The notes: a model not told the origin generated them from the sequence alone. Shown: positions 27,349 to 57,886, counted from the first letter of the stretch. The stretch is DNA of 64,000 nt from an uncultured Clostridia bacterium (GCA_946533175.1 CAMNBS010000001.1:35316-99315); one strand, 5' to 3'. Program-made: numbers and translations.

Positions 27349-27993
27349 TTATAAACTTAATTCCAATACTTTCTCATGGTTATCTATTAAATCTTTGGAA
27401 AAAGTCCGAATTAACTCATTAAGTCTATTTTGAATATCAATAAGAGTATTATTCTTATAATCAACCAATAATATTCCCATTAGAATAGAAGAAATAAGCA
27501 TAACCGTACTATAAACAATCGAACTATTAAAATTATGCTCACTGTTTAATAAAACATAAGAAATCAAGTCAACTATTCCTAAGGCATAAATTCTTTCTAA
27601 GCTATCTAACTTCATTTTTTTTAAATCATCATAATAGCGTATTTTTTCAAAAATTTTCTTAAATTGTTGTTCACTTTGACCAATTAATTGATAAACATGA
27701 GAATCTTTTGATAGCTCATTTAGAATCAAATTATGTTGTTCAGCATACAAAATTAAATATTGAACTATTAATGAATGGTCATCAGTAATAACACTTGTTT
27801 CATCATCATAGATAATTATTGCTTCCGAATAACTATTTTTATCCTTATTTAAGGTATAACCTATCATATAAATTTCACTGACTTTTTCAAAATTCATTTT
27901 TTTTAAAGAGACTTTTCTTTTACCTACTTCATATTTCATATTAAACCTCAAATTACAAGGATATATTTTAACAAGAAAAGAATTTCTTGTCAA
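27349..27993 (-). CDS. Hypothetical protein (about 190-214 aa), start uncertain
   Basis: ORF immediately downstream of uvrA (2-nt gap). C-terminal hydrophobic segment; no recognisable motif. Confidence 0.4.
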   Translation of the reverse strand: MTRNSFLVKIYPCNLRFNMKYEVGKRKVSLKKMNFEKVSEIYMIGYTLNKDKNSYSEAIIIYDDETSVITDDHSLIVQYLILYAEQHNLILNELSKDSHVYQLIGQSEQQFKKIFEKIRYYDDLKKMKLDSLERIYALGIVDLISYVLLNSEHNFNSSIVYSTVMLISSILMGILLVDYKNNTLIDIQNRLNELIRTFSKDLIDNHEKVLELSL

Positions 27994-33182: not shown

Positions 33183-33345
33183 TTTGCCTCCTTTATATTA
33201 TTATCTATTTCCTGTTACCATAAATAAAAGTCCTTATAGCATAGAATAAGGACTTTAATTCATAAAGATTCTTGTCCTCGGTAGGATTTACATATTACCT
33301 ACTGTCTATGGCACCAACAAACATAGTTATTATAACATAATTTTA
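33183..33345 (-). promoter_or_regulatory. rplJ 5' leader (candidate L10(L12)4-binding autoregulatory leader)
   Basis: 163-nt untranslated gap between rplA and rplJ with two stable hairpins (AAGTCCTTAT...ATAAGGACTT; GGTAGG...CCTACT), as expected for the Firmicute L10 leader. Confidence 0.3.
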
Positions 33346-34738: not shown

Positions 34739-35275
34739 TTATGCTTTTTCTACTTGATCAAGAGGCACTTCAATACTTGTTTCTTGTCCAAATAAATCAA
34801 CAATAGCATTAACTAATTTTTGTTCTAAATCAATGCTTTCAATTGTTCCAGACATACCAACAAATGGTCCATCTGTAATTTTAATTTTATCGCCTTCTTT
34901 TAATTCGGCATTAATCTTTTCTTTGGTAATTCCCATATTTTTTAGAATATTATCTACTTCATATGGTTGTAAAGGTGTTGGCTTAGCACCTTTTCCAGAA
35001 GAACCAATAAATCCTGTAACTCCTGGAGTATTACGAACAACAAACCATGCTTCGTCAGTCATTACCATTTCTATTAAAATATATCCTGGAAAAATTTTCT
35101 TTATTTTCTCTTTTGTCACCCCATCTTTTTCTTCAATAACTTTTTGTTCTGGAACAACAACGCGACATATTTTATCTTCCATATTCATTGATTGAGCACG
35201 CATTTCGATTTTTTCTTTAACCATATTCTCATGACCAGAATATGTATTAACAACATACCATTTTTTCTCTTCCAT
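34739..35275 (-). CDS. nusG: Transcription termination/antitermination factor NusG
   Basis: NGN domain KWYVVNTYSGHENMVKEKIE and KOW motif GDKIKITDGPFVGMSGTIESID. Confidence 0.9.
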   Translation of the reverse strand: MEEKKWYVVNTYSGHENMVKEKIEMRAQSMNMEDKICRVVVPEQKVIEEKDGVTKEKIKKIFPGYILIEMVMTDEAWFVVRNTPGVTGFIGSSGKGAKPTPLQPYEVDNILKNMGITKEKINAELKEGDKIKITDGPFVGMSGTIESIDLEQKLVNAIVDLFGQETSIEVPLDQVEKA

Positions 35276-35277
35276 AA

Positions 35278-35454
35278 TTACACCAACGTCTTAATAAAGG
35301 CCACAGCCAAATCAATTAAATAAAAGAATAAAGCAAAAAATACTACAAAAGTAATTGTTGCAATCGAATATTTAACCATATCTTTTTTTGTTGGCCATTT
35401 TACTTTACCTAATTCCTTTTTAACTTCTCCAAAGAATTTTTTAATTTTTTTCAT
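35278..35454 (-). CDS. secE: Preprotein translocase subunit SecE (58 aa; too short for the ORF track)
   Basis: My translation from ATG 35454: MKKIKKFFGEVKKELGKVKWPTKKDMVKYSIATITFVVFFALFFYLIDLAVAFIKTLV*. Single C-terminal TM, conserved KVxWP motif, RBS AAAGGAGA, immediately upstream of nusG. Confidence 0.65.
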   Translation of the reverse strand: MKKIKKFFGEVKKELGKVKWPTKKDMVKYSIATITFVVFFALFFYLIDLAVAFIKTLV

Positions 35455-35666
35455 AAAACAAATTCTCCTTTTTAAACCAAAATAAAAACACCTTCGTGCA
35501 CATATAAAATATCACACTCAGGTGAAAAAAGCAAGTTTTTTTTAATACAATCATTAATTATATGATAAATTTCAATGGAAATATATTTATCACGATGTTT
35601 AAGATTAATTCCTTTAACAGATAATTGCCGTGTTTTTTCTTCTTTCAAAATACAAAAAATCTATTT

Positions 35667-37001
35667 TTATTTATTTTTTGATTGTTCTTCAACGTTTCCT
35701 TTACATTTTTGAATAACATTATTTACATACCTACTCTTCAGCTCTCCTAACTTACTTATAACTTCTAAATGCGTTGGCGTTGAATTATTCCATATAATTG
35801 CTGCATCTTTATATTTAAAAGCAAAATTTGAGTCACAAGCAGCATTATATGTATAAGAATATACTATATATTTCACAATGGGAGAACAATCCATAAATGA
35901 CATTACATTTTCCCATTCATATTTACCACCATTATTTATATAATTACTATAATTACTATAATAATTAGAATCAGCCAAAAGAATTCTATTACACCATTTT
36001 TTACAAAAATCATACATCTTATTTTCATTATACAAATTTCTAGTTCCACCATAATGAATTTCCATATCCGGTTCAATTTCAAACAACAATTCAAACAGTA
36101 TGTTTCTATTAGCAGTATTTTCTTCAGTAAAATTCCGATGCTTCAATGAATAAGTCATCATTGACTCATCACCATAGTTTAAATTACCTTTAACAATATT
36201 ATCAATATAATTTATTAAAAAATACCCATCAGATCGTGTTATGTTTTCATAATTTTCATTCATGTAATCTAAAAATACTCTTTCAAATCTTGGATAATTT
36301 TCAATAATAAAATTATCATGTTGTGAAAGATGTAAATTATATCGATCAGATGAATCATGATTTTCCCAACGAATAATTGGACTTTGACTTAGTTGAGTTC
36401 TTTCAGTTAATTTATAAGTCGATAAAGTTGCTGATAATATTGCAATACTTGCAATAAAACTAATTGTAATTTTAAGGGCTCTTTTTCTTGATTGCTTTCT
36501 TCTCTCTATATCTCTTATTAATTCTTCCCTTATATGCTGTGCACGTCTTCCATTTTGAGGACCGGAAAGTAACTTATCACGATAATGTTTTTTTGATTTA
36601 TATTCAGAAATAGAATGAGCAAAATCATCTTGAGCACGCTCAATAGCTTCTCTAATTTTCTGCCTTTTATCTAAAACTGCATCCCGAGCATTATTGGCCA
36701 AACGTCCTGGAAGTTTAAATATTGAATGGTCATATATATCACATAATGATTCTCTTTGTTTTCCTGTCCAATAGTCAAAAAATAGAACAGGTTCATATAA
36801 CTTATGTGAAGATAAAAAATTAATAATTTCATAGTACTTATCGGTACCATCAATTCTTCTTTGATATACTCGTTCAATTCTATCCGGATCATCAATTGTA
36901 TACTCCAAAATACAATAAGTTTTGTCAAAACCATATTGATCAAAGTACACTCTTAATCTTACAAATTTTTCTTTTTTATTAAAATCTAATATTGGTTCCA
37001 T
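35667..37001 (-). CDS. Hypothetical bitopic membrane protein (about 190-aa cytoplasmic N-domain, 1 TM, about 230-aa Cys/Tyr/Asn-rich ectodomain)
   Basis: Single central TM ITISFIASIAILSATL; N-domain charged and helical; C-domain has 6 Cys and NYYSNYSNY repeats. No family recognised. Confidence 0.5.
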   Translation of the reverse strand: MEPILDFNKKEKFVRLRVYFDQYGFDKTYCILEYTIDDPDRIERVYQRRIDGTDKYYEIINFLSSHKLYEPVLFFDYWTGKQRESLCDIYDHSIFKLPGRLANNARDAVLDKRQKIREAIERAQDDFAHSISEYKSKKHYRDKLLSGPQNGRRAQHIREELIRDIERRKQSRKRALKITISFIASIAILSATLSTYKLTERTQLSQSPIIRWENHDSSDRYNLHLSQHDNFIIENYPRFERVFLDYMNENYENITRSDGYFLINYIDNIVKGNLNYGDESMMTYSLKHRNFTEENTANRNILFELLFEIEPDMEIHYGGTRNLYNENKMYDFCKKWCNRILLADSNYYSNYSNYINNGGKYEWENVMSFMDCSPIVKYIVYSYTYNAACDSNFAFKYKDAAIIWNNSTPTHLEVISKLGELKSRYVNNVIQKCKGNVEEQSKNK

Positions 37002-37064
37002 GAATTACCTCCATAATTTACAAATGATGACAACTTTAAAACTAATCTGTATTATTTGGTTATT

Positions 37065-37673
37065 TTACCTATAAAAAATAAAATATACAACAATAACAAT
37101 TAAAAATACTAAACATAATACTGCTGGTAAAAGAAGTATTTTAGCATAACCATTTTCTTTATCACTAAAAGCTCTTCCTACTGCTGTTGATTTTGTATAA
37201 ACCAAACTACTATTTTTATTATTTCCTCGATCATTATTATAATTTAAAGCAAAATTATTAATATAATCAATATTACCACGCATAAAAACATCTATATAAT
37301 ATTCTTGAAACATTTTAGGTATTTTCCCATTTTCTAAAAACATATCTAAATTATCAATTAAATAACTAATAAATTCTTTGTTAGTATAAAACTTATTAAA
37401 TCGATTAAAAGCACAAATACCAATGGAACACATCTCTAAAATATCTTGTTTATCGCCATTTGAATTAAAACCTTCCTGTTCTTGTTTAATATAATCAACT
37501 TTATTTTTAAATGAAGCTAAGGTTATTTCATCATTAATAACTTCTATATCTGCCATATCACTAACCACATAATAATTATTTTGATGTAATTCCATTACAC
37601 TTTTATCTAAAAGCATCAATCGACTTGTTAATTCATTATTTGGTATATGACTAAGAAAATCTTTCAATTTCAT
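37065..37673 (-). CDS. Hypothetical tail-anchored protein (C-terminal TM)
   Basis: 202 aa; hydrophobic C-terminus ILLLPAVLCLVFLIVIVVYFIFYR. Confidence 0.45.
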   Translation of the reverse strand: MKLKDFLSHIPNNELTSRLMLLDKSVMELHQNNYYVVSDMADIEVINDEITLASFKNKVDYIKQEQEGFNSNGDKQDILEMCSIGICAFNRFNKFYTNKEFISYLIDNLDMFLENGKIPKMFQEYYIDVFMRGNIDYINNFALNYNNDRGNNKNSSLVYTKSTAVGRAFSDKENGYAKILLLPAVLCLVFLIVIVVYFIFYR

Positions 37674-37724
37674 AAAATCACCCTATTCTAAAATAATTAT
37701 AACACAATCTTTTTCTTTAAACAA

Positions 37725-38087
37725 TTATTTTTTTATCTTACTTTTCTTTGCATAGTGATTTCCAATTATTTGATAACAGATAAGTGCTAATAATAATGAT
37801 AAAAGAGTTCCAAATAATAAAGATATTACTGCATTATTATATAATTTAATAACAAAAGTTATAGCAAAAGATAAGATTATTGTTGTAACAAAACTTACTA
37901 TTTTAACCATACTATAAATATCAATTTTTTTATAGTCAATATGATATTTTATTAGTATTAAATTCACTTCCACTGGTACATAATCTTTATTCTTTTTACA
38001 TTTTCTTATAATAAAGAAATAATATAATGTATAAATAATTAAAAACGTAGCCAAAAATTCTATAATTGTCATATAAATATTTTCCAT
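37725..38087 (-). CDS. Small polytopic membrane protein (3-4 TM)
   Basis: 120-aa hydrophobic ORF; its start is 1 nt from the GH31 stop. Confidence 0.4.
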   Translation of the reverse strand: MENIYMTIIEFLATFLIIYTLYYFFIIRKCKKNKDYVPVEVNLILIKYHIDYKKIDIYSMVKIVSFVTTIILSFAITFVIKLYNNAVISLLFGTLLSLLLALICYQIIGNHYAKKSKIKK

Positions 38088-38088
38088 A

Positions 38089-40485
38089 TTACATCTCCAT
38101 ATATTCTAATAGTCTTAAAAAGATTTTTACACTTCTTGTATCCAATCCTTTTCTTTTTAATTTCCGTAGCGCTATTCTTTTATTACCTAAAGACATCTCT
38201 TCATTAAACATTATTCTAGCTACATCATCTTTAATAACCGTATTTATTTTTAAGTCAGAAATAATACTATCAATATCATCTTTAATAAGTTTTAAACTAT
38301 CAATTTCGATATCTTTTCCATAACAGTTAACAACTAATTGATTCTTTGTATCAACATTTTTTATATACACAATAAAATCAGTTTCAGTTGTCTCAGTTTG
38401 AATATCTTGTAATTCTTGATTATTTTCATATACAACAACATTATCAGATTTTTTTGTATTACGAAAAACTATTTTAAAATTTCTTTTTTCTGGTATAACA
38501 CTAGTATCTCCTTCTAAAGAACGAATAATTAATGTGTAATTACTTGCTCGATAATTATAATCTAACTCTGTAATATGATATTTTCCCTGTTGATATTCCA
38601 TAGTTTCTCCATCATCTTCATATAAATGATATGTATTACTCTCACCAGGAAAAACGTGAATTTCAAAGCTATTAGGATTATTTACACTATATAAACTATC
38701 ATCACCAGCTAAAGGAATAATACTGCCTCTTTTAACAAAAATAGGATAGTCATCTATAGAATAAAAAGCAATATATTTATGATTTCCAAGAAAACGTTTT
38801 CCAGTCTTAAAATCATACCAAACGCCTTCTGGAATATAAAACTTTTGAATAGTTCTTCCAATTACCGAATCCATAGGATTAATAATAGGACTAATCATAA
38901 TAGAACTACCAAAATAATATTGATTAACATAGTTTTCATTATCATAAAAAACAAAATCATGATAATAAAATGGTCTAATTATCGGGGTTCCATTTTTACT
39001 ATATTTATACGCCTCTGTATATAAATAAGGAATTAATTTATGACGAAGTCTTAGATAATAACTAGCAATACTATCCGTTACAACATCCCATTTCCAAGGC
39101 TCTCGTTTAAAGTAATTTCCATACTCAGTATTAAAACGTAGAATAGGGGAAAAGACACCAAATTCTAGACTTCTTAAATAAAAGTCACTATCTTCAATTC
39201 CTCCAATACTACCGCCAACATCATGACTCCAAAAACTTACACCAATATTAGCACTATTTAAATTATAAAATGGTAATATTCTTAAAGTATTCCAATCAAT
39301 TGGATTATGACCAGAATATAAAATATTAAACAAGTGAGCATCATAGGTACTATTACGTGATAAAACCAAATCACGTTTATTTTCTCTTAAAAAATCTTTA
39401 TGCATATAATAGTTCATCAAATATAGTTTATTTTTATCAGAATCATTATAATCATTCCAAAAAAAATCAATTCCCATATATTCTAACGGTTGCAAATAAA
39501 ATTTTAAAAATATATCAATATCTTTCATATTCATTGGATCAAAAGGAATTATCCCTTTTTTATTAGCAGTTATATATTTCAAAGTTTCATTATAATACTT
39601 TTCACAAGGGTAGAAACCAAATTGAGGATTAATTTTTAACCCTATTTTTAAACCTGAATGATGTACTTTAGCAATAAAATCACTAGGATTAGGATATAAT
39701 TTTTCATTAAAAGTAAATCCTGTTTTAACATTTTCTCCAGCTTTTGACCATCCATTATCCAATAAGAAAACAGATAAAGGTATATTATGTAACTTAAATT
39801 TTTCTATTAAGGATAATACTTCTAAATCACTATAGTTATACTCCTTGCTCCACCAATTACCTAAAGCATATCTAGGAATTAATTTTGGATATCCTGTTAA
39901 ATGAAAATAATCTTGTAAACATAATCCAAAATCTTTATCATAAATAAATAAGTATAGATCAACATGGCCTTTAGAAACAGAAGGAATAACAGGATTACTA
40001 TAAATGTCAAAACGCATACTATATGTATCATCAATTGTTGCAATACCATCTGTTGCAAACAAACCATTAACAAGTTTAGGCAAAGATATACAATTATCTA
40101 AACTTTGGGCACAGCTTTTTAAATTCCGAACCTCCTTATTACCATAATACCAAGCAACTTTTTTATCTTTTATTGAAACTGTTAAACTACGGCTAGAAAA
40201 GGGCATATTTTTTACATAAGAAAGCGTAAAATATTTAGTTTCAATTCTTAATATACCTTCATCTTCTTGTTTTATAAAAGATGGTTCTGTAAATAATCTG
40301 TTTTTAACAATAACCGTTTCCATATCATTAAAAACACCATCTACACTATATTCAAGTCTCATTAATCTTTCAGTTAAAACTGATATTCGATATTGACTTC
40401 CACGAAATATTACTTTAGAGGATGATAATAATTGATTTGGTTGACCATTTTTAAAGTGTTCACCTAAATTATACATACTATTCAC
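38089..40485 (-). CDS. Glycoside hydrolase family 31 (alpha-glucosidase/alpha-xylosidase-like), cytoplasmic (no signal peptide)
   Basis: GH31-like catalytic regions: ...YMGIDFFWNDYND... (compare G[IF]W.DMNE) and FWSHDVGGSIGG; 798 aa; N-terminus lacks a signal sequence. Confidence 0.7.
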   Translation of the reverse strand: MNSMYNLGEHFKNGQPNQLLSSSKVIFRGSQYRISVLTERLMRLEYSVDGVFNDMETVIVKNRLFTEPSFIKQEDEGILRIETKYFTLSYVKNMPFSSRSLTVSIKDKKVAWYYGNKEVRNLKSCAQSLDNCISLPKLVNGLFATDGIATIDDTYSMRFDIYSNPVIPSVSKGHVDLYLFIYDKDFGLCLQDYFHLTGYPKLIPRYALGNWWSKEYNYSDLEVLSLIEKFKLHNIPLSVFLLDNGWSKAGENVKTGFTFNEKLYPNPSDFIAKVHHSGLKIGLKINPQFGFYPCEKYYNETLKYITANKKGIIPFDPMNMKDIDIFLKFYLQPLEYMGIDFFWNDYNDSDKNKLYLMNYYMHKDFLRENKRDLVLSRNSTYDAHLFNILYSGHNPIDWNTLRILPFYNLNSANIGVSFWSHDVGGSIGGIEDSDFYLRSLEFGVFSPILRFNTEYGNYFKREPWKWDVVTDSIASYYLRLRHKLIPYLYTEAYKYSKNGTPIIRPFYYHDFVFYDNENYVNQYYFGSSIMISPIINPMDSVIGRTIQKFYIPEGVWYDFKTGKRFLGNHKYIAFYSIDDYPIFVKRGSIIPLAGDDSLYSVNNPNSFEIHVFPGESNTYHLYEDDGETMEYQQGKYHITELDYNYRASNYTLIIRSLEGDTSVIPEKRNFKIVFRNTKKSDNVVVYENNQELQDIQTETTETDFIVYIKNVDTKNQLVVNCYGKDIEIDSLKLIKDDIDSIISDLKINTVIKDDVARIMFNEEMSLGNKRIALRKLKRKGLDTRSVKIFLRLLEYMEM

Positions 40486-40611: not shown

Positions 40612-40917
40612 ATGGAATATAAAAAAATTCATAATTTAGTTTATCAACAAAATCTCCTAATTAAACCACAGAATTACTGTTCAAAAAAAGAATATAATTT
40701 AACTTTAGATAAAATGTTAATTAATAATTTACAAAAATGTATCGATAAAAAAATTCCAATAGAAATAGATGAAATAGAATTTGCTAATGTTTATAAGATA
40801 TATCTTAAATTGCGAAAAAATAATATTCCTATTGATTATAGCTTTATTATTAATTTATCAAATTTAGCTACTAAAAAACTAGATTATTTAGGAATTATTC
40901 ACGAAATAACGGAGTAG
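40612..40917 (+). CDS. Small hypothetical protein (101 aa) co-transcribed with the radical-SAM gene
   Basis: RBS GAAGGTGA 7 nt upstream; 3-nt gap to the next gene. Confidence 0.4.
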   Translation: MEYKKIHNLVYQQNLLIKPQNYCSKKEYNLTLDKMLINNLQKCIDKKIPIEIDEIEFANVYKIYLKLRKNNIPIDYSFIINLSNLATKKLDYLGIIHEITE

Positions 40918-40920
40918 AGC

Positions 40921-41853
40921 ATGTTTACTTATTCAGATACTAATAAAAGATATCATACATTAGATTATTATTATAAACATAAATTTGGCTGTAAAATAGC
41001 CAAAATATCATTAAATGCTGGTTTTACTTGTCCAAATAAAGATGGGACAAAAGGAGTAGGGGGATGTATTTACTGCTCTAAACTAGGAAGTGGTGATTAT
41101 GCTGGAAAGCCCAATAAAAGTTTAAGTGAACAATTTTATGAAATCAAAAATATAATAGATAAAAAGTGGCCAAATGCAAAATATATAGGCTATTTTCAAG
41201 CCAATACCAATACATATGCCAGTGTTAACGTTTTAAAAGAAAAATATGAAGAAATATTAAATATCAATGGAGTAGTAGGTCTAAATATTGCAACAAGGTC
41301 TGATTCTATTTCTTTGGAATGTCTTGATTACTTAGAAGAATTAAACAAAAAAACTTTTTTAAATGTTGAATTAGGTCTACAAACTATTCATGAAAAAACC
41401 AATAAATTAATTAACAGGAAAGAGACACTAGAAGAATTTGAAAAAATGGTTAAAAAACTTCGTAGTAGAGGAATAAATGTTATAGTTCATATTATTAACG
41501 GATTACCATACGAAACCAAGGAAATGATGCTAGAAACAATTAAATATGTCAATAAGTTAGATATTCAAGGTATTAAAATTCATATGCTCCATATTCTTAA
41601 AAACACCAAATTAGCAGAACTATATCAAAAAGAAAAATTTCACATATTAACTAAAGAAGAATATGTTAACATTGTCTGTGATCAATTAGAACTATTAAGA
41701 AAAGAAATTGTTATTAACAGAATAACAGGTGATCCAAATCCCAATGAATTAATTGAACCACAATGGTTAATTAAAAAATTTGGAGTATTAAATGAAATAG
41801 ATAAAGAAATGGTAAGAAGAAATGCTTACCAAGGAGATAGAGTAGGGGATTAA
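40921..41853 (+). CDS. Radical SAM protein, TIGR01212 (YhcC-like) family
   Basis: Unusual extended cluster CPNKDGTKGVGGCIYCS characteristic of TIGR01212; about 310 aa. Confidence 0.7.
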   Translation: MFTYSDTNKRYHTLDYYYKHKFGCKIAKISLNAGFTCPNKDGTKGVGGCIYCSKLGSGDYAGKPNKSLSEQFYEIKNIIDKKWPNAKYIGYFQANTNTYASVNVLKEKYEEILNINGVVGLNIATRSDSISLECLDYLEELNKKTFLNVELGLQTIHEKTNKLINRKETLEEFEKMVKKLRSRGINVIVHIINGLPYETKEMMLETIKYVNKLDIQGIKIHMLHILKNTKLAELYQKEKFHILTKEEYVNIVCDQLELLRKEIVINRITGDPNPNELIEPQWLIKKFGVLNEIDKEMVRRNAYQGDRVGD

Positions 41854-46593: not shown

Positions 46594-48039
46594 CTAAAAA
46601 TTCCCTTTCTTATCTATTTTGATAGTAATTTGATACATATCATCAAAGTTAATTTCATCTGTATCAATTTTAAGTTTACTTTTTTCCTTAATTCGATCAA
46701 TCGTTTCTTTTAATTCTTCAATTATTTCATCGATATTATCAATCATATCAGGTCTTGAAATATCAACATAATCAGGATTATCTTCTACATAATTATTGGC
46801 GTTAAAATTACTAGTTATTGGTGGAGTAACATCATTTAACATAACATTATTCTCATTAATATTATTACTTGAAGGCATTTCGTTATTATAGTTAGGAATA
46901 ATATTGGTAATATTATTTAATTCATTTTGATTACTATTTTGCTCATTCAAGGAATCAGTATAATTATTCTGAACATTTGTGAATTCATTAGTTGGAGTAG
47001 GGGAGCTTGTATCTACTGAATCATTAATATTTTGTTCATTAGAATTATTATTATAATTATTTAAGAAGCTCATAAAGTTATTACTATCATTACTATCCAA
47101 TACATTATTTTCAGGACTTTCTGATACACCAATATTATTTATATAATTATTATCATTACTATATGAATTAGAATTTTCATAATTATTTAAGAATGAATTA
47201 TTTTCTGATGGTGCTGTTTCATTCAAACTTGCTTTGTCATAATTATTTAAAAAGCTTGTAAAATTATTATTGTCATTATTAGTTAAATTTTCAGATGAAT
47301 GCATTCCATTATCAAAATTATTCAAGAAACCAATTCCACTATTTTCATTAGGAATACTGTTATTCATATTATTATTTAAATTATTATCAATAAAACGATT
47401 ATTTATTCCATTTGGTATCCAATTATTAGTATTATTATTTTCTTCATTCATCATTTTTATTTCACTATCCAATTCTCTAACGGTCATTCTTTTTTCTTTT
47501 ATTTTATTGAGTAATTCTATTTGTTTTTCACTATTTTTAACTGCTAATAAACTTCGAGCATGTCTTTCACTTATCTCATTCTTCATTAGAGCATCTTGTA
47601 CTTCAATTGGTAAAGTAAGAAGTCTTAATTTATTAGCTAAAGTAGACTGACTAATTCCCAACGATTTAGCCAACTCTTCTTGAGTCATATTATTACTCTT
47701 TAGTATACGTTCAGAAGTACGAGCTTCTTCAATAGCCGAAACATCTCTTCGTTGAGCATTCTCTATATATGCAACAATAGAACTCTCTTTATCATCCAGA
47801 TTTTTTACGATAGCCGGAATTTTAGTTAATCCTGCAAGAGCAGATGCCTTATATCTACGTTCACCAGCAATTATTTCATACTTATTTTCAAAAGGACGCA
47901 CTAGAATTGGTTCCAAAACACCATGTTGTCTTATAGAATCAGCAAGTTCATTCAATGCTACTTCGTCAAAAATTTCTCTTGGCTGAAAACGATTAGGAAT
48001 AATATCATCTAATTTTATGTACATGATTTCATTTTCCAT
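46594..48039 (-). CDS. ParB/Noc-family paralogue with a ~250-aa Asn/Ser-rich repeat insert
   Basis: N-terminal ParB box (IIAGERRYKASALAG) and HTH (QEELAKSLGISQSTLANKLRLLTLP). Then a low-complexity region with four copies of an (N)F(T/M)SFLNNY-like motif, and a short charged C-terminal domain. Confidence 0.7.
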   Translation of the reverse strand: MENEIMYIKLDDIIPNRFQPREIFDEVALNELADSIRQHGVLEPILVRPFENKYEIIAGERRYKASALAGLTKIPAIVKNLDDKESSIVAYIENAQRRDVSAIEEARTSERILKSNNMTQEELAKSLGISQSTLANKLRLLTLPIEVQDALMKNEISERHARSLLAVKNSEKQIELLNKIKEKRMTVRELDSEIKMMNEENNNTNNWIPNGINNRFIDNNLNNNMNNSIPNENSGIGFLNNFDNGMHSSENLTNNDNNNFTSFLNNYDKASLNETAPSENNSFLNNYENSNSYSNDNNYINNIGVSESPENNVLDSNDSNNFMSFLNNYNNNSNEQNINDSVDTSSPTPTNEFTNVQNNYTDSLNEQNSNQNELNNITNIIPNYNNEMPSSNNINENNVMLNDVTPPITSNFNANNYVEDNPDYVDISRPDMIDNIDEIIEELKETIDRIKEKSKLKIDTDEINFDDMYQITIKIDKKGNF

Positions 48040-48137: not shown

Positions 48138-48554
48138 TTATTTTGACATTGTTTTACTATGTAACTGCTTATATTCTTTATTTAAATCATCTAATATGTC
48201 AAATAGTGTTCTTTCATATAATCGACTCTCTTCTTTTTCGAAGAATAAGGGTAATGTAGCCATTAAATCATATATTTGTTGCATAATATATATAATTTTT
48301 CTATCAAATAATTCAGATGATTCTACACTATGCGTTTCTTGATAATCATCCCTTATTTTATTCATGTCTTCAATATCACGATAAATTAATTTCATAAAAT
48401 TGACAATCACATGTCTTATTTTTTTATTAGATTCACCCGATAATTGAAGTGTAGTTACAAATTCTTTTAATGATGTACCACCTGGAATATAATCTTTTAT
48501 TTTTTTATCCTCTTTTTTCATAATTTTCTCCTTTTTATTTTTTGCTTTTTCCAA
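48138..48554 (-). CDS. Hypothetical protein (138 aa), paralogous to the C-proximal part of the upstream 414-aa protein
   Basis: Shares the motif series (II)Y(IM)QQIYDL / YYHYLICNYIQIIDEV and LFDILDDLNKEYKQLH / LLNVLNDLNDQYHDLH with the neighbouring gene; overlaps it by 20 nt. Confidence 0.45.
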   Translation of the reverse strand: MEKAKNKKEKIMKKEDKKIKDYIPGGTSLKEFVTTLQLSGESNKKIRHVIVNFMKLIYRDIEDMNKIRDDYQETHSVESSELFDRKIIYIMQQIYDLMATLPLFFEKEESRLYERTLFDILDDLNKEYKQLHSKTMSK

Positions 48555-49779
48555 TATTTGATGGTAATTTGGGATGTCTTAATTCTTCATATTGTCTAAC
48601 ACAACTATTGCGTATCCCTAATAAAATATCCTCTATTCTTTCTTTTTCAATTTCAGAATATAGTTTTGGTACAATTTCTAAAAGCTTATTAATACTTTGC
48701 TGAAAAAACTCAATTCCTCCATATAAAGTACTTACTATTCTTTTTTCTAATTTTAATAATTTTATATTTTCAGTTTCATAATTACCATTTTCACATAGCA
48801 AATTTTTATGATACTTTAATTGTTCGTGAAGTTTAGAACCATCGAAATTAAAACGAAAAGGTTCATATCCTTCTTTCAAATCAAGATGTCTTTCCCATAA
48901 CACAACTATTTCGTTTAGCAAAATTAAAAATAACGACTTAGCATCTTCTTCATTACCTGTTTTTAAGGTTTCCATTATTTTCTCAACTTTATAATCAAAT
49001 AAATAAGGATCATATCCTACACCATACATTTTTATTTCAGAATATCCGTATGAAGAATCAGTTGAATTTTCTTGATCTTTTTCAGGGGCTTTACTTTTAG
49101 ACTTACGGCCATCTTTATAAATAATTCTATGAAGATCATGATATTGGTCATTTAAATCATTAAGTACATTTAATAATGATGTAAGTAAGCCGCTTTTTGT
49201 AGGACTTTTATAATATACTTCATCAATAATTTGAATATAATTACATATAAGATAATGATAGTATAAAAAACTTCCTTCCAAATACCTTTTTATTTTATCA
49301 TCTAAAAAGTTAGCATCAATAGGTAAATTATGTTTAAAAAACAATGAAAATTTACTTTTAAAAAGAGGATATTTATTCAAAGATTCTACAATTTCACTAC
49401 AATCACCACTTAAAAGAAAATCTTTATACATTTTCTTTAAAAGAATATGAGATTCTATATTTCTTACTAAATCATCTAATTTTACTTCCATTATTCCATA
49501 AGCCAAGTCTAAATTCCCTGAAGAAAAATTAGTACGAATACTACTTAATCCATCAGAATCAATTCTGTATCCTGCGGCTGACATTTTTAATTTTACTGTA
49601 GTTGAAGCAAAATAATTTTTTATATTTCTACTTATTTCACTACTTATTACGGAAGCTTTGGGCTTTTCTTTCTTTTTTTCTTCTTCTTGTCTTTTTTTCA
49701 TAAAAGAAAACATATCCTTTCTTTTTGGACTTTCCTTTTTCTTATATAATTCATCATTATCTTTCATAGTACACTCCAT
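48535..49779 (-). CDS. Hypothetical protein (414 aa) with N-terminal K/E-rich low-complexity tail
   Basis: Long ORF between noc and rsmG; no recognisable family; internal region paralogous to the 138-aa neighbour. Confidence 0.5.
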   Translation of the reverse strand: MECTMKDNDELYKKKESPKRKDMFSFMKKRQEEEKKKEKPKASVISSEISRNIKNYFASTTVKLKMSAAGYRIDSDGLSSIRTNFSSGNLDLAYGIMEVKLDDLVRNIESHILLKKMYKDFLLSGDCSEIVESLNKYPLFKSKFSLFFKHNLPIDANFLDDKIKRYLEGSFLYYHYLICNYIQIIDEVYYKSPTKSGLLTSLLNVLNDLNDQYHDLHRIIYKDGRKSKSKAPEKDQENSTDSSYGYSEIKMYGVGYDPYLFDYKVEKIMETLKTGNEEDAKSLFLILLNEIVVLWERHLDLKEGYEPFRFNFDGSKLHEQLKYHKNLLCENGNYETENIKLLKLEKRIVSTLYGGIEFFQQSINKLLEIVPKLYSEIEKERIEDILLGIRNSCVRQYEELRHPKLPSNIGKSKK

Positions 49780-52400: not shown

Positions 52401-53756
52401 CTATTTCCCTACACAAAATTTACTAAATAATTCATCTAATAATTCATCACTATATTTTTCACCGATAATCTCTCCTAATATATTCCAGATATTTCTTAAA
52501 TCTATTTCTAACATATCAAGAGGAATATCGTTTAATAATGACATATCAATATCATCTAATATCTTAAGACATTCTTTAATTTTAGCAATTTCTCGAGCAT
52601 TAGTAATATAGTTGTAATCTTGTTTTTTTATTTGATCCAAATTAAATAATTTAGTGATTCTATTCTTTAAATCATCAAGTCCAGATGATAAAAGAGTATT
52701 AGCATAAATTACGTCTCGATTTTGTAATTTAGAAATATCAATTCTACTATTTAAATCATCTTTATTAATGACAACAATACTCGTTTTATCTTTTGTTTTA
52801 TCCAATATATCTAAATCAACCTCAGTTAATTCTTCATTATTATTCAGAATAACCAACACTAAATCAGCTTCATCAATTTTTTCAAAACTTTTCTCAACAC
52901 CAATCTTTTCAACAAGATCATTTGTTTCACGAATTCCAGCAGTATCAATAAAATCCAGTAATATTCCATTAAAAGATATACTACCTTCCACAATATCTCG
53001 TGTTGTACCAGGAATATCCGTAACAATAGCCTTATCAGTATCTAAAAACCTATTTAAAAGACTGCTTTTGCCTACATTGGGACGTCCAACAATAACTGTT
53101 TTTATACCTTCACTTATTATTCTTGTGTTTTCATATTCCGATATTATTTTTACTAAACTATTTCTAAATATACTTAATTTACTTTTTAAATCTTGTACTG
53201 TAACTTCATATATATCATTATATTCAGGATAATCAATATTTACTTCAATGTTACTTATAATATTAATTAAGTCTTTTCTTAAAGAAGAAATAAGCTTTTT
53301 TGCATTACCTTCTAATCCCTTCATAGCCATTTTTCTTGCTGCCTCAGTTTTACTATTAATTAAATCCATAATTGCATCAGCTTCAGTCAAATCAATTCTT
53401 CCATTTAGAAAAGCCCTTTTAGTAAACTCACCAGCTTCTGCTAAACGACAACCATTACATAAAAGTATTTCTAACACTTTTTTTGTTGTCGCAATACCAC
53501 CATGACAGTTAATTTCTACTATATTTTCTTTCGTAAAAGTTCGAGGAGCTTTCATCACACTCACTAATACCTCATCTATTTTTTCATTATTATATACAAT
53601 ATATCCATAATGAATAGTATGTGATTTAACATTTTCCAAATTTTTACCAAAAAACACTTTATTTACTATCTTTATAGCATCATTTCCACTAACACGAACA
53701 ATTGATATAGCAGAAACCCCTAAAGCTGTACTAATAGCGCAAATCGTATCTTGCAT
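52401..53756 (-). CDS. mnmE: tRNA modification GTPase MnmE
   Basis: G-domain GRPNVGKSSLLN and C-terminal FCVGK (CxGK motif). Confidence 0.9.
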   Translation of the reverse strand: MQDTICAISTALGVSAISIVRVSGNDAIKIVNKVFFGKNLENVKSHTIHYGYIVYNNEKIDEVLVSVMKAPRTFTKENIVEINCHGGIATTKKVLEILLCNGCRLAEAGEFTKRAFLNGRIDLTEADAIMDLINSKTEAARKMAMKGLEGNAKKLISSLRKDLINIISNIEVNIDYPEYNDIYEVTVQDLKSKLSIFRNSLVKIISEYENTRIISEGIKTVIVGRPNVGKSSLLNRFLDTDKAIVTDIPGTTRDIVEGSISFNGILLDFIDTAGIRETNDLVEKIGVEKSFEKIDEADLVLVILNNNEELTEVDLDILDKTKDKTSIVVINKDDLNSRIDISKLQNRDVIYANTLLSSGLDDLKNRITKLFNLDQIKKQDYNYITNAREIAKIKECLKILDDIDMSLLNDIPLDMLEIDLRNIWNILGEIIGEKYSDELLDELFSKFCVGK

Positions 53757-53758
53757 AA

Positions 53759-54541
53759 TTAACTCCTTTTCTTCTTTTTTAAATTATTATTACAATATTT
53801 TAAAATATTATCACATATTTTATATTCCTCAATTAGTTCTTCATAGCTTAATGTTAATAAATTACTATAAATATCATTTTCATGACAATAATTAATAAAT
53901 TCTTCCATATTATCAATTATTCTTTGACAAGCATCAATTAATAATGTTTCATCATACTCATCTTGATTCAAATAATATAAGGTAATTAAATGAAAAATAG
54001 TTGTATTAACTATCATTATTTCATAAAAATCCAATGTATTATGATGTTCTTTTTGATACTCTTGATATAGATTCATTACATCTTTCAATATATTAAATAA
54101 TTTATCATTATATTTTTTTATTTTAAACAATTTATCACATGAAATATTCTTTACTATTTTACTAATAAAAATATCAAATTCAGTTAAAACCTTTATTTTT
54201 TCTTCATCCATATCACTGCTAATTAACTTATCAGATGGCAAAAGCAAACACTGAATATCTTGCATTAAATATAAACTATCTTCATAAGAAAAAACACTAT
54301 TTTCATCATCTAGCATTATTTTTGCCATTAGTTTAAATAAATCTTCATCAATTAATTGTAATTTTTTTTCTTTCTTGAAAAGATATAAGTCATCCATTAG
54401 GCATAATAAATCATTAATATTCATTTTAACATACTTTAAAAATAATCTTATTTTAGATAAAATAACAGATGCTTCTTCTATAGATAAACTTTCACCTGTT
54501 TGTTTTTCATATAGCCCAATCAAATAATAAGAATGAAACAT
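53759..54541 (-). CDS. Hypothetical acidic, helical protein (260 aa) translationally coupled to mnmE
   Basis: Stop TAA-TT-ATG (2 nt) to the mnmE start; no motif recognised; not present in the canonical Bacillus jag-mnmE interval. Confidence 0.45.
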   Translation of the reverse strand: MFHSYYLIGLYEKQTGESLSIEEASVILSKIRLFLKYVKMNINDLLCLMDDLYLFKKEKKLQLIDEDLFKLMAKIMLDDENSVFSYEDSLYLMQDIQCLLLPSDKLISSDMDEEKIKVLTEFDIFISKIVKNISCDKLFKIKKYNDKLFNILKDVMNLYQEYQKEHHNTLDFYEIMIVNTTIFHLITLYYLNQDEYDETLLIDACQRIIDNMEEFINYCHENDIYSNLLTLSYEELIEEYKICDNILKYCNNNLKKKKRS

Positions 54542-54605
54542 AATATCCCCCCAATCAAATGTATCATAACACTATTTCTATTTGAAGTAAAGAAAAGAAA
54601 CTATT

Positions 54606-55229
54606 TTATTTAGTTTCTTCATCTTCCATCTTTGGTTTTATAACAACATAACGATGAGGTTCTTCTCCTTCACTTTCTGTATATACTCCACGATAATTAG
54701 TTAACGCATTATGAACTATTCTTCTCTCATAAGAATTCATCGGATCAAGTTTAGCTTCTATTTTTGTTTTAGCAACTTCTCTTGCTACTTTTTTAGCTGT
54801 TTTTTCAATGAAAAATTGTTGTTTTTCTTTATATTCTGAAACATCTAACACAAAGTTATAATAAGTACCAATCTCTTTATATACAGCTTGTTTAACAATG
54901 GTTGTTAAAGCAGATAATGTACGAGCATTTTTTCCTATTAAGATACCATTATTATCACTATATATAGCAATACTAACATTATCATCTCTTTTTTTTACTT
55001 CCATGTTTATAGTCAAACCCATATACTTAGTAATATTTTTCAACAATTCTTTAATATATTCAATTACATCTTCCTTTTTAATAACCTCAATAACAGATTT
55101 TTTATTAAACAATTTCGTTGAACTTTCTATTTCATTAATATATAGATTTTCTTCTTGTTCCATTAAATCAACTAAAGCATTATTTTTGGCTTCTTCAAAG
55201 TTTTTTGCTTGATAAGTATACTTCTTCAT
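54606..55229 (-). CDS. jag: Jag/KhpB RNA-binding protein (Jag_N, KH and R3H domains)
   Basis: C-terminal R3H YERRIVHNALTNYRGVYTESEG; position downstream of yidC. Confidence 0.8.
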   Translation of the reverse strand: MKKYTYQAKNFEEAKNNALVDLMEQEENLYINEIESSTKLFNKKSVIEVIKKEDVIEYIKELLKNITKYMGLTINMEVKKRDDNVSIAIYSDNNGILIGKNARTLSALTTIVKQAVYKEIGTYYNFVLDVSEYKEKQQFFIEKTAKKVAREVAKTKIEAKLDPMNSYERRIVHNALTNYRGVYTESEGEEPHRYVVIKPKMEDEETK

Positions 55230-55230
55230 C

Positions 55231-56343
55231 TTACTTCATACTCCTTTTAATTAAATAGTTTTGTATTAATGTACAAACATTCGATGCAATCCAATAAATA
55301 TTTAGTGCTGAACTCATAAATATCGACATAACAATAATCATTATTGTAAAAACATTCATCATTGTCTTTGTTTGCTTCATCATATCATTATTTGCTGTAT
55401 TATTATTTTGAGTATTTTTAAAAGAATAAAAAGTAGTTACTGCAACAAGAAGAGTTAAAACAATATAAAACCAATTGCCGTTTCCAATACCTATTCTCGG
55501 AGTCATTCCTAAATGAAGAGATAAAAGTTTTTCTTCAAAAATTGCTGGTACTCGATTTATAGCATCTAAAAAAGCAATGAATAAAGGTAATTGTAAAAGA
55601 GCTGGTAAGCATCCTGATATAGGATTAATATCATATTTTTTATAAAGCATCATCTTTTCTTGAGCTTGTGCCATCGCTATTTCACGATCATTTTTATCTT
55701 TTCCTTCGTATTTTTTATCAATTCGATCCATTTCCGGTTGAATTTGTTTCATTTTTTCAGATTGCATAGTTGATTTTCTAGTTAAAGGAAACACTATTAA
55801 ACGTATTAAAATAGTTGTAATAATTAATCCAATACCAAAATTACCAGTAAGTTTTCCAAAAAACAATATTACCCATGCAAGAGGTCTTACAAAGATATTT
55901 GTCCATAATCCTTCATATTTTCCGGATATGGTAAATTCTTTACAAGTATCTGTATCTTCCTTGGCAACTTCATTCGTATTTTCTTCATTTTCTTTCTTTT
56001 CTTCGGTTTGTTTGGTTTCATTTTTTTTAGATTCATCTTGCTTTTTAGATTCTGATACTTCTTTTTCCTCATTAGAATCATCAGCTTCTATTTGCTCTTC
56101 TTTTTCTTCTTGATAATCTTTACAAGAACAATATGGCAATTCACTTAAATCATAACCGTTAGCTTCATAAAGCATTATTGTTTCTTCATCAGTTGGGCGA
56201 CATAAAATATTTTCTGTTAAACTTTGCCCAGTTGTCTTATTAATTACTGTCTTACCATCATCACCTTTGATATAAGTGGTGCATCCTGTTGTTCCTAATA
56301 ATAAAACAATACTTAACAATGTATATTTAATTTGTTTCTTCAT
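55231..56343 (-). CDS. yidC: Membrane protein insertase YidC/SpoIIIJ (lipoprotein type) with an acidic/Lys-rich N-terminal insertion
   Basis: Lipobox LLLGTTGC; core YidC motifs (KMKQIQPEMDRIDKKY..., ISGCLPALLQLPLFIAF). Confidence 0.85.
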   Translation of the reverse strand: MKKQIKYTLLSIVLLLGTTGCTTYIKGDDGKTVINKTTGQSLTENILCRPTDEETIMLYEANGYDLSELPYCSCKDYQEEKEEQIEADDSNEEKEVSESKKQDESKKNETKQTEEKKENEENTNEVAKEDTDTCKEFTISGKYEGLWTNIFVRPLAWVILFFGKLTGNFGIGLIITTILIRLIVFPLTRKSTMQSEKMKQIQPEMDRIDKKYEGKDKNDREIAMAQAQEKMMLYKKYDINPISGCLPALLQLPLFIAFLDAINRVPAIFEEKLLSLHLGMTPRIGIGNGNWFYIVLTLLVAVTTFYSFKNTQNNNTANNDMMKQTKTMMNVFTIMIIVMSIFMSSALNIYWIASNVCTLIQNYLIKRSMK

Positions 56344-56686
56344 TTTCTTGTTCCTTTTCTTTATTAATTTTTTGCATTAAATACATAAAGCTATCATTAA
56401 TATCACTAAATTTTAACTCTATGCATCCTTTCTTCATTATTATAATATAATCTTTATTATTTGAATAGTACTTTTTATTATTATCACAAATATTTCTTAT
56501 TACTCTTTTATAATAATTTCTAGTTACAGCATTACCAATTTTTTTACCAACGGATACTCCAAAACGATTTTTTCTAAATGTATTATTCATATAGTAAATA
56601 ATAAAATCTTTATTTTGAACATACTTTCCATTTTGAATAATATTATCAAATTCACGATTGTTTTTAACAACATCTTCTTTTTTCAT
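56327..56686 (-). CDS. rnpA: Ribonuclease P protein component
   Basis: RFGVSVGKKIGNAVTRNYYKRVIRN motif; start probably the ATG at 56686 (the track adds 10 N-terminal residues). Confidence 0.8.
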   Translation of the reverse strand: MKKEDVVKNNREFDNIIQNGKYVQNKDFIIYYMNNTFRKNRFGVSVGKKIGNAVTRNYYKRVIRNICDNNKKYYSNNKDYIIIMKKGCIELKFSDINDSFMYLMQKINKEKEQENEETN

Positions 56687-56724
56687 AACTTCTCCCGATG
56701 GAACAAAAAGAACCACATATGTGG

Positions 56725-56850
56725 CTATTTTCTAATTAATTCTTTACGACCTTTTTTTCTACGACTATTCATAATCTTACTTTTCATACGAGCAAAAAAA
56801 CCATGCTTTTTAGCTCTTCTTCTATTATTTGGTTGATAAGTTCTTTTCAT
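56725..56850 (-). CDS. rpmH: 50S ribosomal protein L34
   Basis: [23 protein letters not shown]...; start moved to the ATG at 56850 with RBS GGAGGTGG 6 nt upstream. Confidence 0.9.
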
Positions 56851-56929
56851 CAATTCCACCTCCATAAATACAAAATCTACACTATTATAATAAACTTTTT
56901 CTAGATTTGTCAAATGTTTTTATTAAAAA

Positions 56930-57886
56930 TTATCCCCTCATAATTACATAAGTGTAATACATTAAGAAAACCATTAAAAACATAATTCCTTCTTTTTTGC
57001 TAATTTTTCGGTCATTTAATGTAAATACAAATAATAAAATAGCACTTATAAGCATCGCAATAATATCAATATAATTAAAATTAATTTGATTTATTCCACC
57101 AAAAATGGCCACAGGAAGTCCTAAAACTAATCCTATATTAAAAATATTACTTCCTACAACATTTCCAATTGCTAAATCAGATTCTCCTTTTTTAGCAGCA
57201 ACTACTGAAGTAACTAATTCAGGAAGAGAAGTTCCCAAAGCAATAATTGTTAAACTAATCATTTTTTCACTAACATTTAAGCTTTTGGCAATACTAGATG
57301 CTTGATTGACTACTAAATCACTTCCTAAGACAATCATGGCAATTCCTAAAACAGTAAATATTATAGCTTTTAATAATGTCATTTTGGCTTTTTCTTCATT
57401 ATCTCTTTTCTTATCTTTAATACATACTGATACTAAATAGTAAACAAATACTGTAAAGAATAATAGTAAAATGATTCCATCACTTCTAGTAAAATTATTC
57501 GCTATATCGGCATTGAAAAAACTATTAGAAACCAATACACCAAATAATGTTGTAATTAATAAAAGAATCGGTAATTCTTTTTTTACAGTATTCTCCTTAA
57601 CCACTAATACGCCAAATAATGAGCTTACTCCTAAAATCAATAAAATGTTCAATATATTACTTCCTATTACGTTTCCTAAAACAATATCATAATTACCAGA
57701 CATAATAGATTTTAGGCTAACTGCAAACTCTGGTGCAGATGTACCAAAAGCAACAATAGTTAAACCAATAACTATTTTAGGAATTTTAAAATTCGTTGCG
57801 GTACTACTAGCGCCATCTACAAAAAAATCAGCCCCTTTAATTAAAATAACAAACCCCACAATTAATAATAAAATTTGTAATAACAT
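56930..57886 (-). CDS. Ca2+/Na+ antiporter, CaCA (YrbG) family
   Basis: Two alpha-repeats GNVIGSNILNILLILG and GNVVGSNIFNIGLVLG; 10 TM helices. Confidence 0.8.
   Translation of the reverse strand: MLLQILLLIVGFVILIKGADFFVDGASSTATNFKIPKIVIGLTIVAFGTSAPEFAVSLKSIMSGNYDIVLGNVIGSNILNILLILGVSSLFGVLVVKENTVKKELPILLLITTLFGVLVSNSFFNADIANNFTRSDGIILLLFFTVFVYYLVSVCIKDKKRDNEEKAKMTLLKAIIFTVLGIAMIVLGSDLVVNQASSIAKSLNVSEKMISLTIIALGTSLPELVTSVVAAKKGESDLAIGNVVGSNIFNIGLVLGLPVAIFGGINQINFNYIDIIAMLISAILLFVFTLNDRKISKKEGIMFLMVFLMYYTYVIMRG

Follow-up and report, generated by a model that had tools for sequence, protein, structure and literature searches.

The order of genes around secE in Bacillus subtilis, cysS-mrnC-rlmB-yacP-sigH-rpmGB-secE-nusG-rplKAJL, is a natural reference for loci of this kind. 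In principle, retaining glycosidases can work without an acid/base carboxylate; natural examples are the GH1 myrosinase, which has Gln in its place, and the GH3 NagZ/Nag3 phosphorylases, which have His. In each case the loss goes together with leaving groups that are good or anionic, or else with phosphorolysis. Membrane-anchored bacterial pseudokinases are represented by EssB/YukC and by the pseudokinase domain of MviN. Within family GH31, LlGH31_u1 from Lactococcus lactis is an intracellular, hexameric α-1,3-glucosidase specific for nigerose, with a C-terminal four-helix domain (PMC9061262). Its nucleophile is Asp341 and its acid/base is Asp394, with the D394A variant being inactive; H280, Q343 and H427, and also S455 and Y99, are the subsite residues that recognise nigerose (PMC9061262). 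This article examines a 64,000-nucleotide (nt) stretch of DNA, here called the window, from an uncultured Clostridia bacterium (GCA_946533175.1 CAMNBS010000001.1:35316-99315), in which four genes upstream of secE encode a GH31-fold protein and three membrane proteins, designated TM120, p202 and p444. These genes form a block that recurs at the same place in related genomes, and the GH31-fold protein is, by alignment, one that fails a defining catalytic feature of its family, the acid/base Asp. Coordinates count from the first letter of the window, and all genes of the block lie on the minus strand (aa, amino acids; TM, transmembrane):

38089–40485, minus strand: GH31-fold protein, 798 aa, cytoplasmic (Pfam, best PDB match 7WJ9, residue mapping)
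37725–38087, minus strand: TM120, 120 aa, three hydrophobic segments (sequence reading and family alignment)
37065–37673, minus strand: p202, 202 aa, tail-anchored (homologue clusters, AF2 model, Foldseek)
35667–37001, minus strand: p444, 444 aa, bitopic, filling a variable slot (hydropathy scan, transitive phmmer)
35455–35666, minus strand: spacer of 212 nt between the p444 gene and secE, without rpmG and with a promoter-like match
35278–35454, minus strand: secE, 58 aa, downstream anchor (Pfam and NCBIfam SecE; synteny in all loci)
34739–35275, minus strand: nusG, 178 aa, downstream anchor (synteny in all loci)

The four open reading frames (ORFs) that the initial annotation had placed upstream of secE on the same strand are all present at these positions. 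For the GH31 gene, a GTG start gives the 798-aa product; gene callers choose an ATG three codons further in, which yields 795 aa. Downstream of nusG follow rplK, rplA, rplJ and rplL.

The unifying point is that this block is a conserved neighbourhood. Relatives were obtained by tracing contigs from the closest GH31 homologues, and scans of genome and metagenome collections with a p202 profile added 21 loci; the ORFs of loci L001–L034 were labelled by script for synteny. The order GH31, ~120-aa gene, ~200-aa gene, (variable gene), secE, nusG occurs in ~20 independent contigs from sheep rumen, cattle rumen and human gut. The block-bearing relatives are labelled in NCBI as metagenome-assembled genomes of uncultured Erysipelotrichaceae or Bacilli. 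The block is seen wherever the contig is long enough (L001–L034), with GH31 identity down to ~52%, and only the p444 slot is patchy among relatives. The full order is gidA-gidB-parB-parA-parB-DUF951-AbgT-ychF-(radical S-adenosylmethionine (SAM) gene and p101 gene on the opposite strand)-GH31-~120 aa-~200 aa-(variable gene)-secE-nusG-rplKAJL.

The initial annotation had regarded the four genes as an accessory island. This is largely refuted by the recurrence of the order in relatives, by typical composition and by the lack of repeats, tRNA or integrase. The G+C content at third codon positions (GC3) of the four genes is 0.10–0.15, compared with a window mean of 0.14 (standard deviation 0.024), and their codon-usage distances are ordinary; set against the rest of the window, the block thus carries no island signal. 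There are no tRNA genes in the whole window, no meaningful boundary repeats and no integrase or mobility genes in the flanks of the block, and PADLOC and PHROGs, which cover defence and phage families, returned no matches. In the relatives, rpmG and secE are not contiguous and the same block is present; the same genes stand at this position, and the membrane proteins match no permease family.

The absence of rpmG before secE, also remarked upon initially, is real, as the 212-nt spacer contains no rpmG-like ORF. Neither a motif search nor tblastn with approximate RpmG queries detected rpmG in the window or the related loci. Since rpmG is missing before secE in every related locus examined, this is not a local event, and a missing rpmG together with unfamiliar genes is not sufficient ground for calling an island.

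The GH31-fold protein matches PF01055 (1e-45; 156.9 bits, cut-off 23.5), PF21365 (60.8 bits) and PF17137 (60.5 bits). Its description as a cytoplasmic enzyme without a signal peptide was borne out; this is normal, because the closest characterised relatives, the GH31_u1 group, are intracellular too. The nearest solved relative suggests a relationship to that group: 7WJ9 (LlGH31_u1) aligns with an expectation value (E) of 6e-112 (residues 26–653), with 35% identity over 618 aligned positions. Residues were mapped by two alignments, one made with HMMER, with posteriors highest in the catalytic stretch, and one made with MAFFT that included 120 orthologues. The orthologue set (n=121) shows 52–72% identity, and all members have ~795–800 aa.

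Much of the active site is retained. The nucleophile D345 (equivalent to D341 of LlGH31_u1) is kept in 119 of the 121 sequences, as are the equivalents of the −1 subsite residues: D231 in 116, W339 in 120, and both H422 and D423 in all 121. Of the 798 columns, 171 are invariant in at least 98% of sequences. Together, overall identity, invariant columns and retained core residues indicate strong purifying selection on the active-site core.

The acid/base column contains Arg in 73 sequences, His in 22, Lys in 22, and Tyr, Asn, Gln and Ser in one each; Asp and Glu are found in none of the 121. The window protein has His393 at this position, in a motif YSGH as against the canonical (W/F)xGD, and a second reference, 5X3I, gives the same register, with its ‘WAGD’ aligned to ‘YSGH’. 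The residues that confer specificity in LlGH31_u1 are replaced as well. The equivalent of H280, which contacts the 6-OH, is Asn in 119/121, and that of H427 is Ser in 107/121; the equivalent of Q343 varies across the clade (Asn in the window), that of S455 is Glu or Val (Glu in the window), and Y99 is not kept (Lys in the window). The labels ‘alpha-glucosidase’ and ‘alpha-xylosidase’ are unjustified because both the acid/base Asp and the specificity residues of the relative are missing. Another carboxylate, Glu431, is invariant (121/121); LlGH31_u1 has Lys432 there, five residues past the +1 subsite residue. Judged by its position in the alignment, Glu431 is a candidate for a relocated acid/base.

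The protein may still be a retaining enzyme that processes α-glycosides. Two routes can be envisaged: the acid/base would have been relocated, with Glu431 as the candidate, or the substrate would carry an anionic or otherwise good leaving group and require no acid catalysis. An active retaining enzyme of either type, acting with a relocated acid/base or on an anionic or activated substrate, is on our estimate slightly more likely than not. We know of no GH31 case of a replaced acid/base, and a literature search for GH31 members lacking this residue and for a GH31 subfamily paper returned nothing directly relevant. If active without the canonical Asp, the clade would widen the known catalytic range of a much-studied α-glycosidase family, and would call for caution before these proteins, which are abundant in rumen and gut, are labelled alpha-glucosidase or alpha-xylosidase.

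The GH31 and TM120 genes are closely joined. The sequence TAA-T-ATG leaves 1 nt between the GH31 stop and the TM120 start, with GGAG located 9–12 nt upstream, and the corresponding gap is 0–8 nt in L004, L006 and L014. Because the TM120 start codon lies 1 nt past the GH31 stop, translational coupling is likely, and by this route the GH31 protein and TM120 would be produced together. Gaps of 51 nt and 63 nt precede the p202 and p444 genes, each with its own Shine–Dalgarno-like sequence, and 212 nt separate the p444 gene from secE. The tiny gaps (1–60 nt) originally reported therefore hold for the internal spacings (1, 51 and 63 nt) and not for that between p444 and secE. A single transcription unit had been proposed as well; the tight spacing and the lack of terminator-like hairpins, none of which was found on the coding strand, are compatible with co-transcription. 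The p444/secE spacer contains a promoter-like sequence, TTGAAA-16-AATTAT, at 35648–35621; a scan of this AT-rich DNA gave 57 such matches compared with 55.8 expected from shuffles, i.e. no enrichment.

TM120 had been described as a protein with three to four TM segments; sequence reading and the family alignment give three hydrophobic segments. Its cytoplasmic loop, RKCKKNK..VPxEVxLI..IDxKKIDxY, is well kept at an overall identity of 49–73%. The gene lies directly upstream of the p202 gene wherever a contig of the window's clade shows both, except in L008, where the two are separated by a leucyl-tRNA synthetase gene. TM120 has no family match in Pfam, NCBIfam, PADLOC or PHROGs and, like p202, represents a new family of membrane proteins. 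As initially stated, none of the three membrane proteins matches a recognised family; these four collections gave only noise driven by the TM segments (Orf78, AmpE).

p202 is a new family of ~200-aa tail-anchored proteins. Homologues fall into 89 clusters in a word-indexed search and 177 representatives at 50% identity in an exhaustive profile search, and nearly all full-length representatives have 190–290 aa, mostly ~200 aa, with the same layout. The AF2 model, built from 44 sequences (mean predicted local distance difference test, pLDDT, 77), comprises a helix at 12–31, short strands, helices at 73–148, a disordered linker and a C-terminal TM helix; the model ends in helix 164–200, in agreement with the tail anchor described before. 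Residues 1–150 form the cytoplasmic domain, and YTKSTAVGRAF is conserved in the linker. When the model was compared with the PDB by Foldseek, the top 50 matches were all protein-kinase or pseudokinase domains (PAN3 pseudokinase, DAPK, CHK1, CDK9). The family motif ‘MK.lH..GYyi..F.p..I.i....F’ aligns with the kinase helix αE, followed by the catalytic loop and the place of DFG. In the distant member P0273 the sequence is HERGYYITDFNINNILI, compared with the kinase consensus HskgiiHRDlKpeNiLl; this protein also shows weak NCBIfam matches to the LanL and LanKC kinase domains and to Kdo kinase (E 0.008–0.04).

p202 has no N-lobe; it starts at αD/αE, and has VVSD in the place of HRD and SFK in the place of DFG. 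Kinase catalysis is excluded, since N-lobe, HRD and DFG are all missing; no Hanks kinase motif turned up when the window and the loci were searched. A true kinase-fold ancestry is rather probable. p202 may work as a membrane-tethered, pseudokinase-like, non-catalytic scaffold, which would hold a cytoplasmic partner at the membrane. The family would then be a compact, C-lobe-only membrane protein at a highly conserved locus of the Firmicutes (sigH-rpmG-secE-nusG).

An indication of what such a partner might have been comes from more distant genomes. Four distant p202 homologues, matching the profile with E 1e-7 to 1e-16, were placed on their contigs, the loci with sigma context being L035, L036, L037, L039 and L040. 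Each of the four starts 37–58 nt downstream of a Sigma70_r2/r4_2 gene. The best NCBIfam equivalogs of this gene are SigH models, with scores below their cut-offs, and secE or secE-nusG follows the p202 homologue wherever the contig extends that far. L039 has the order lysS..clpC-cysS-mrnC-rlmB-sigH-p202-secE-nusG-rplKAJL..rpoB, which corresponds to the Bacillus order, a p202-family gene taking the place of rpmGB. The window's clade does not have mrnC-rlmB-sigH upstream; L022 has ftsH...dusB-lysS upstream, a remnant of the Bacillus order. p202-secE is the most conserved adjacency, because it is kept in both the window's clade and the distant contexts.

This arrangement suggests a membrane-tethered, sigma-regulating role of p202 in the ancestor; a SigH-like sigma factor as the actual ancestral cytoplasmic partner is a tentative and rather doubtful assignment. 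p202 offers a testable lead on the control of SigH-type sigma factors, or of other partners, in gut Bacilli with reduced genomes. Two further observations concern the surroundings of p202. Directly upstream of it in L030 (600–983) lies a gene whose 127-aa product carries a prepilin-type N-terminal methylation motif (PF07963, 2.8e-06) and in this resembles a competence pseudopilin; this neighbour is of interest because SigH-type sigma factors govern competence genes in some Firmicutes. A 236-aa gene after GH31 in L008 was considered as a p202 homologue and rejected.

The fourth protein, p444, is bitopic as originally described, with a Cys/Tyr/Asn-rich ectodomain and an NYYSNYSNY patch, the latter not being conserved in homologues. 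It consists of a cytoplasmic N-terminal part, a TM segment at ~175–193 (hydropathy scan) and an ectodomain of ~250 aa. In relatives, the slot between p202 and secE holds a gene for 327–529 aa; the slot is doubled in L014 and empty in L008, L015, L016 and L019. A k-mer search for homologues of p444 returned only itself. Slot proteins are mostly linked by transitive phmmer searches (window to L020, 8e-11; L020 to L014, 3e-28; the L004 group reaching L006), and BLASTP aligns p444 with the L004 slot protein at 25% identity (E 1e-5). Between the window and L006 there is no meaningful alignment (1%; BLASTP E 1.0). The linked proteins share a layout of cytoplasmic N-part, charged helix, TM segment and ~240-aa ectodomain.

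The rate of divergence is best appreciated by comparing identities to the window within the same loci: 18–25% for the slot protein, as against 76–83% for nusG, 81–85% for the radical SAM protein, 63–71% for GH31, 50–69% for p202 and 49–56% for TM120. Divergence is rapid in both halves of the p444 family and, within the L004 group, a little more so in the ectodomain. When 13 slot proteins were combined into a profile, neither the PDB nor Pfam gave a meaningful match, the one to ATP synthase b (E 1.6) being due to the charged helix, and a single-sequence AF2 model of p444 was unusable (pLDDT 36, predicted template-modelling score 0.22). The second slot gene of L014 (8253–9479; 408 aa) was rejected as a member of the family, as it has no TM segment and no phmmer link; it has no Pfam match either. 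p444 belongs to a bitopic family that diverges rapidly and whose slot is empty, single or double. It may act as a surface-exposed, fast-evolving partner under diversifying pressure, and might be of use as a marker for strains or be targeted in phage or host interactions. The spacer between p202 and p444 is itself polymorphic between strains, being ~100 bp longer in L001 (2971–3136) than in the window (37002–37064) owing to an indel; L001 is otherwise 99.6–99.8% identical.

dnaA (58176–59537, plus strand) and dnaN (59690–60805, plus strand) lie 18–22 kb from the block, with yidC, jag, mnmE, gidA, gidB and parAB in between, and the block is transcribed away from dnaA. At this distance it is presumably near the replication origin. 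Taken jointly, a vertically inherited, origin-proximal core block of uncultured low-GC rumen and gut Bacilli and the roles suggested above for its proteins form a fairly probable account. The most fitting description of the block is a core module specific to this lineage, made up of a GH31 protein without canonical acid/base, a tail-anchored family, probably kinase C-lobe-only, at sigH/secE, and a fast-evolving orphan.

A bolder form of this account can be formulated, which as a whole is speculative and quite unlikely. In it, an intracellular GH31_u1 α-glucosidase would have turned into an enzyme of different chemistry that acts as part of a membrane complex with TM120 and p202, with the hypervariable p444 exposed on the surface. 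In place of the acid/base, a basic side chain would serve to bind phosphate or an anionic aglycone, making the protein an α-glycosyl-phosphate or lipid-phosphate-sugar hydrolase, transferase or phosphorylase. p202 would be a C-lobe-only, tail-anchored pseudokinase that was originally a membrane-tethered partner of SigH.

This picture of a functional module is complicated by a number of observations that weigh against it. In L008 and L016, inserted genes split GH31 from TM120-p202, and in L022 and L030 GH31 does not lie upstream of p202. Adjacency is the sole basis for proposing that the four genes function together, and where a reduced genome rearranges slowly, genes may stay neighbours simply because they were inherited that way. 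The kinase likeness of p202 is borderline by score, with Foldseek E values of 0.035–0.56 and template-modelling scores of 0.38–0.52 (normalised to 202 residues). Aligning the family by hhalign with five approximate kinase sequences, which counts as a register check only, gave a non-significant probability of 5.7%, in the register αD–αE. The p202 profile had no match among PDB sequences up to E 10, and 44 members searched against Pfam up to E 5 matched no kinase family. No sigma factor gene was found in the window or in L001–L034, and the sigma link may therefore not apply to this organism. As regards GH31, variability at the acid/base position and in the +1 subsite is also expected of a decaying, inactive enzyme. 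Finally, a DDE_Tnp_1 transposase gene (577–579 aa) lies at the 3′ end of GH31, on the opposite strand and just upstream of the TM120 gene, in three loci:

L001:83–1822, opposite strand: transposase copy
L012:83–1822, opposite strand: transposase copy
L026:1228–2961, opposite strand: transposase copy

The copies are 94% identical between two species: L001 and L012 belong to the species of the window (DNA 99.6–99.9% identical), and L026 to a different one. The homology of L001 and L012 to the window begins exactly at the GH31 stop codon (38092), and both contigs end inside the insertion sequence (IS). In the L026 contig only a 34-aa remnant of GH31 is found, and a gene for a Zn-dependent phospholipase C lies beyond the IS. 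The IS at this place points to a recurrent insertion site or a dispensable GH31; together with the L026 remnant, it suggests that GH31 may be dispensable.

The most probable of the alternatives is that GH31 is dead as an enzyme. A dead sugar-binding protein is unlikely on our assessment, if far from negligible. In its full form, which is likewise unlikely, the explanation holds that a pseudo-glycosidase has been kept as a sugar-binding or structural (hexameric) protein with no tie to the membrane proteins, and that the block is conserved by inheritance. The lack of Asp or Glu at the acid/base position in 121/121 sequences and the variation among the residues found there (R/K/H/Y/N/Q/S) speak for it, as do the variation of the Q343 and S455 equivalents of the +1 subsite within the clade, the IS at the 3′ end of GH31 in two species, the separation of p202 from GH31 in L022 and L030, and the lack of activity of LlGH31_u1 D394A (PMC9061262). 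A protein released from catalysis is harder to reconcile with the retention of the nucleophile (119/121), H422/D423 (121/121), D231 (116/121) and W339 (120/121), with 52–72% identity across genera and 171/798 invariant columns, indicating strong purifying selection, and with the tight translational coupling to TM120, which has been kept.

A second alternative, improbable on present evidence, makes p202, perhaps with p444, an anti-sigma or co-anti-sigma factor for a SigH-like factor encoded elsewhere, with GH31 and TM120 as unrelated neighbours. It draws on the distant contexts, in which the p202-like gene follows the SigH-like gene by 37–58 nt in 4/4 cases and secE comes next, and on architecture, anti-sigma factors customarily being single-pass membrane proteins whose N-terminal domain is cytoplasmic. 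Against it, the sigma adjacency holds for the distant homologues only, with no sigma gene in the window or in L001–L034, and Pfam and NCBIfam recognise no anti-sigma domain in p202. To our knowledge, no anti-sigma factor has been described for Bacillus SigH. In addition, sigH, rpmGB and secE are already neighbours in the Bacillus-type order, so that adjacency to both could be positional only.

The weakest alternative, a horizontally acquired accessory island such as a sugar uptake or sensing cassette put between rpmG and secE, might appeal to the lack of rpmG before secE, to three membrane proteins without a known family and to a fall in GC to 0.21–0.22 across the TM120 and p202 genes, and is very improbable given the recurrence of the block, identically placed, in ~20 contigs that come from rumen and human gut and represent different species, its typical GC3 and codon usage, a low GC of the TM120 gene that resembles that of other small membrane or unknown genes of the window (0.193, 0.199), the lack of repeats, tRNA or integrase, and the lack of any transporter-like protein. 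A sugar uptake module, one of the possibilities raised in the initial annotation, is unsupported because nothing in the block resembles a transporter: searches for ABC, PTS and MFS families in Pfam and NCBIfam gave noise only, and TM120, p202 and p444 have 3, 1 and 1 TM segments, compared with a criterion of at least 6.

Further features flank the block:

40612–41853, plus strand: p101 gene (101 aa) and MnmL/YtqA-type radical SAM gene (TIGR01212, 1e-103), divergent from the block
33214–33329, minus strand: L10_leader (Rfam RF00557, 52.9 bits), upstream of rplJ, the sole Rfam match in 64 kb

The p101 and radical SAM genes form the upstream boundary of the block and are kept beside GH31 in relatives. 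Scans of p101 against Pfam, NCBIfam, PADLOC and PHROGs gave only noise driven by TM segments. On the downstream side, some relatives have an extra ORF of 241–253 aa between nusG and rplK, without a Pfam match, so that the operon has two variable slots in all (L004:15706–16467, L008:17839–18564, L014:10305–11048, L016:9406–10149 and L017:2691–3437). The window is without this ORF and has a 180-nt gap at that place.

Elsewhere in the window, dnaA and dnaN (58176–60805) are on the plus strand, and the genes for a Na/Ca exchanger, yidC, jag (KH/R3H) and mnmE (52401–57886) are on the minus strand. This strand switch between dnaA/dnaN and the yidC side places the replication origin probably near 57.9–58.2 kb. 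The interval between yidC and dnaA contains the Na_Ca_ex gene; no rnpA or rpmH was noted there. Three ORFs on the minus strand have no Pfam match: 48535–49779 (414 aa), 53759–54541 (260 aa) and 27349–27993 (214 aa). The 414-aa ORF lies between gidB and a long ParB-like gene, and has no counterpart there in L004 and L006. The first ParB-like gene is long in the window (46594–48039, minus strand), in L004 (2259–3905) and in L008 (745–2550), encoding 481–601 aa as against ~290 aa for the second copy, with an extended C-terminus after the ParB_N and HTH_ParB domains.

Comparison with the known systems brings out what is particular to this locus. The window protein shares with LlGH31_u1 the GH31 fold, the domain order, the lack of a signal peptide, and the nucleophile and −1 subsite residues. 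Both have a C-terminal extension beyond the DUF5110 region, which in the window protein stands at the position of the four-helix hexamerisation domain; the window protein is ~59 aa longer at the C-terminus. The two differ at the acid/base (D394 replaced by His393) and at H280 (Asn), Q343, H427 and S455 (Asn, Ser and Glu) and Y99 (Lys). Their neighbours differ too; the window GH31 gene is accompanied by genes for small membrane proteins and by secE, with no ABC or PTS transporter or LacI genes, unlike that of LlGH31_u1. GH1 myrosinase and GH3 NagZ/Nag3 resemble the window protein in having a retaining fold in which the nucleophile is kept and the acid/base is replaced, and belong to other fold families than GH31.

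With the C-lobes of Hanks-type kinases and pseudokinases (PAN3, DAPK, CHK1), p202 has in common the order of elements (αE, short strands, αF–αI) and the ‘lH..GY.i’ motif; it differs in lacking the glycine loop, the VAIK lysine, helix αC, HRD, DFG and a Pfam Pkinase match. Like EssB/YukC and the MviN pseudokinase, p202 is membrane-tethered; unlike them, it is tail-anchored and has no ectodomain, and EssB/YukC was not among its top Foldseek matches. At the level of gene order, the window retains secE-nusG-rplKAJL with the L10 leader as in Bacillus subtilis, and distant relatives still have cysS-mrnC-rlmB-sigH upstream. In place of rpmGB stands the p202 family, and in the window's clade GH31-TM120 and the origin-proximal gidAB-parAB-ychF block replace mrnC-rlmB-sigH.

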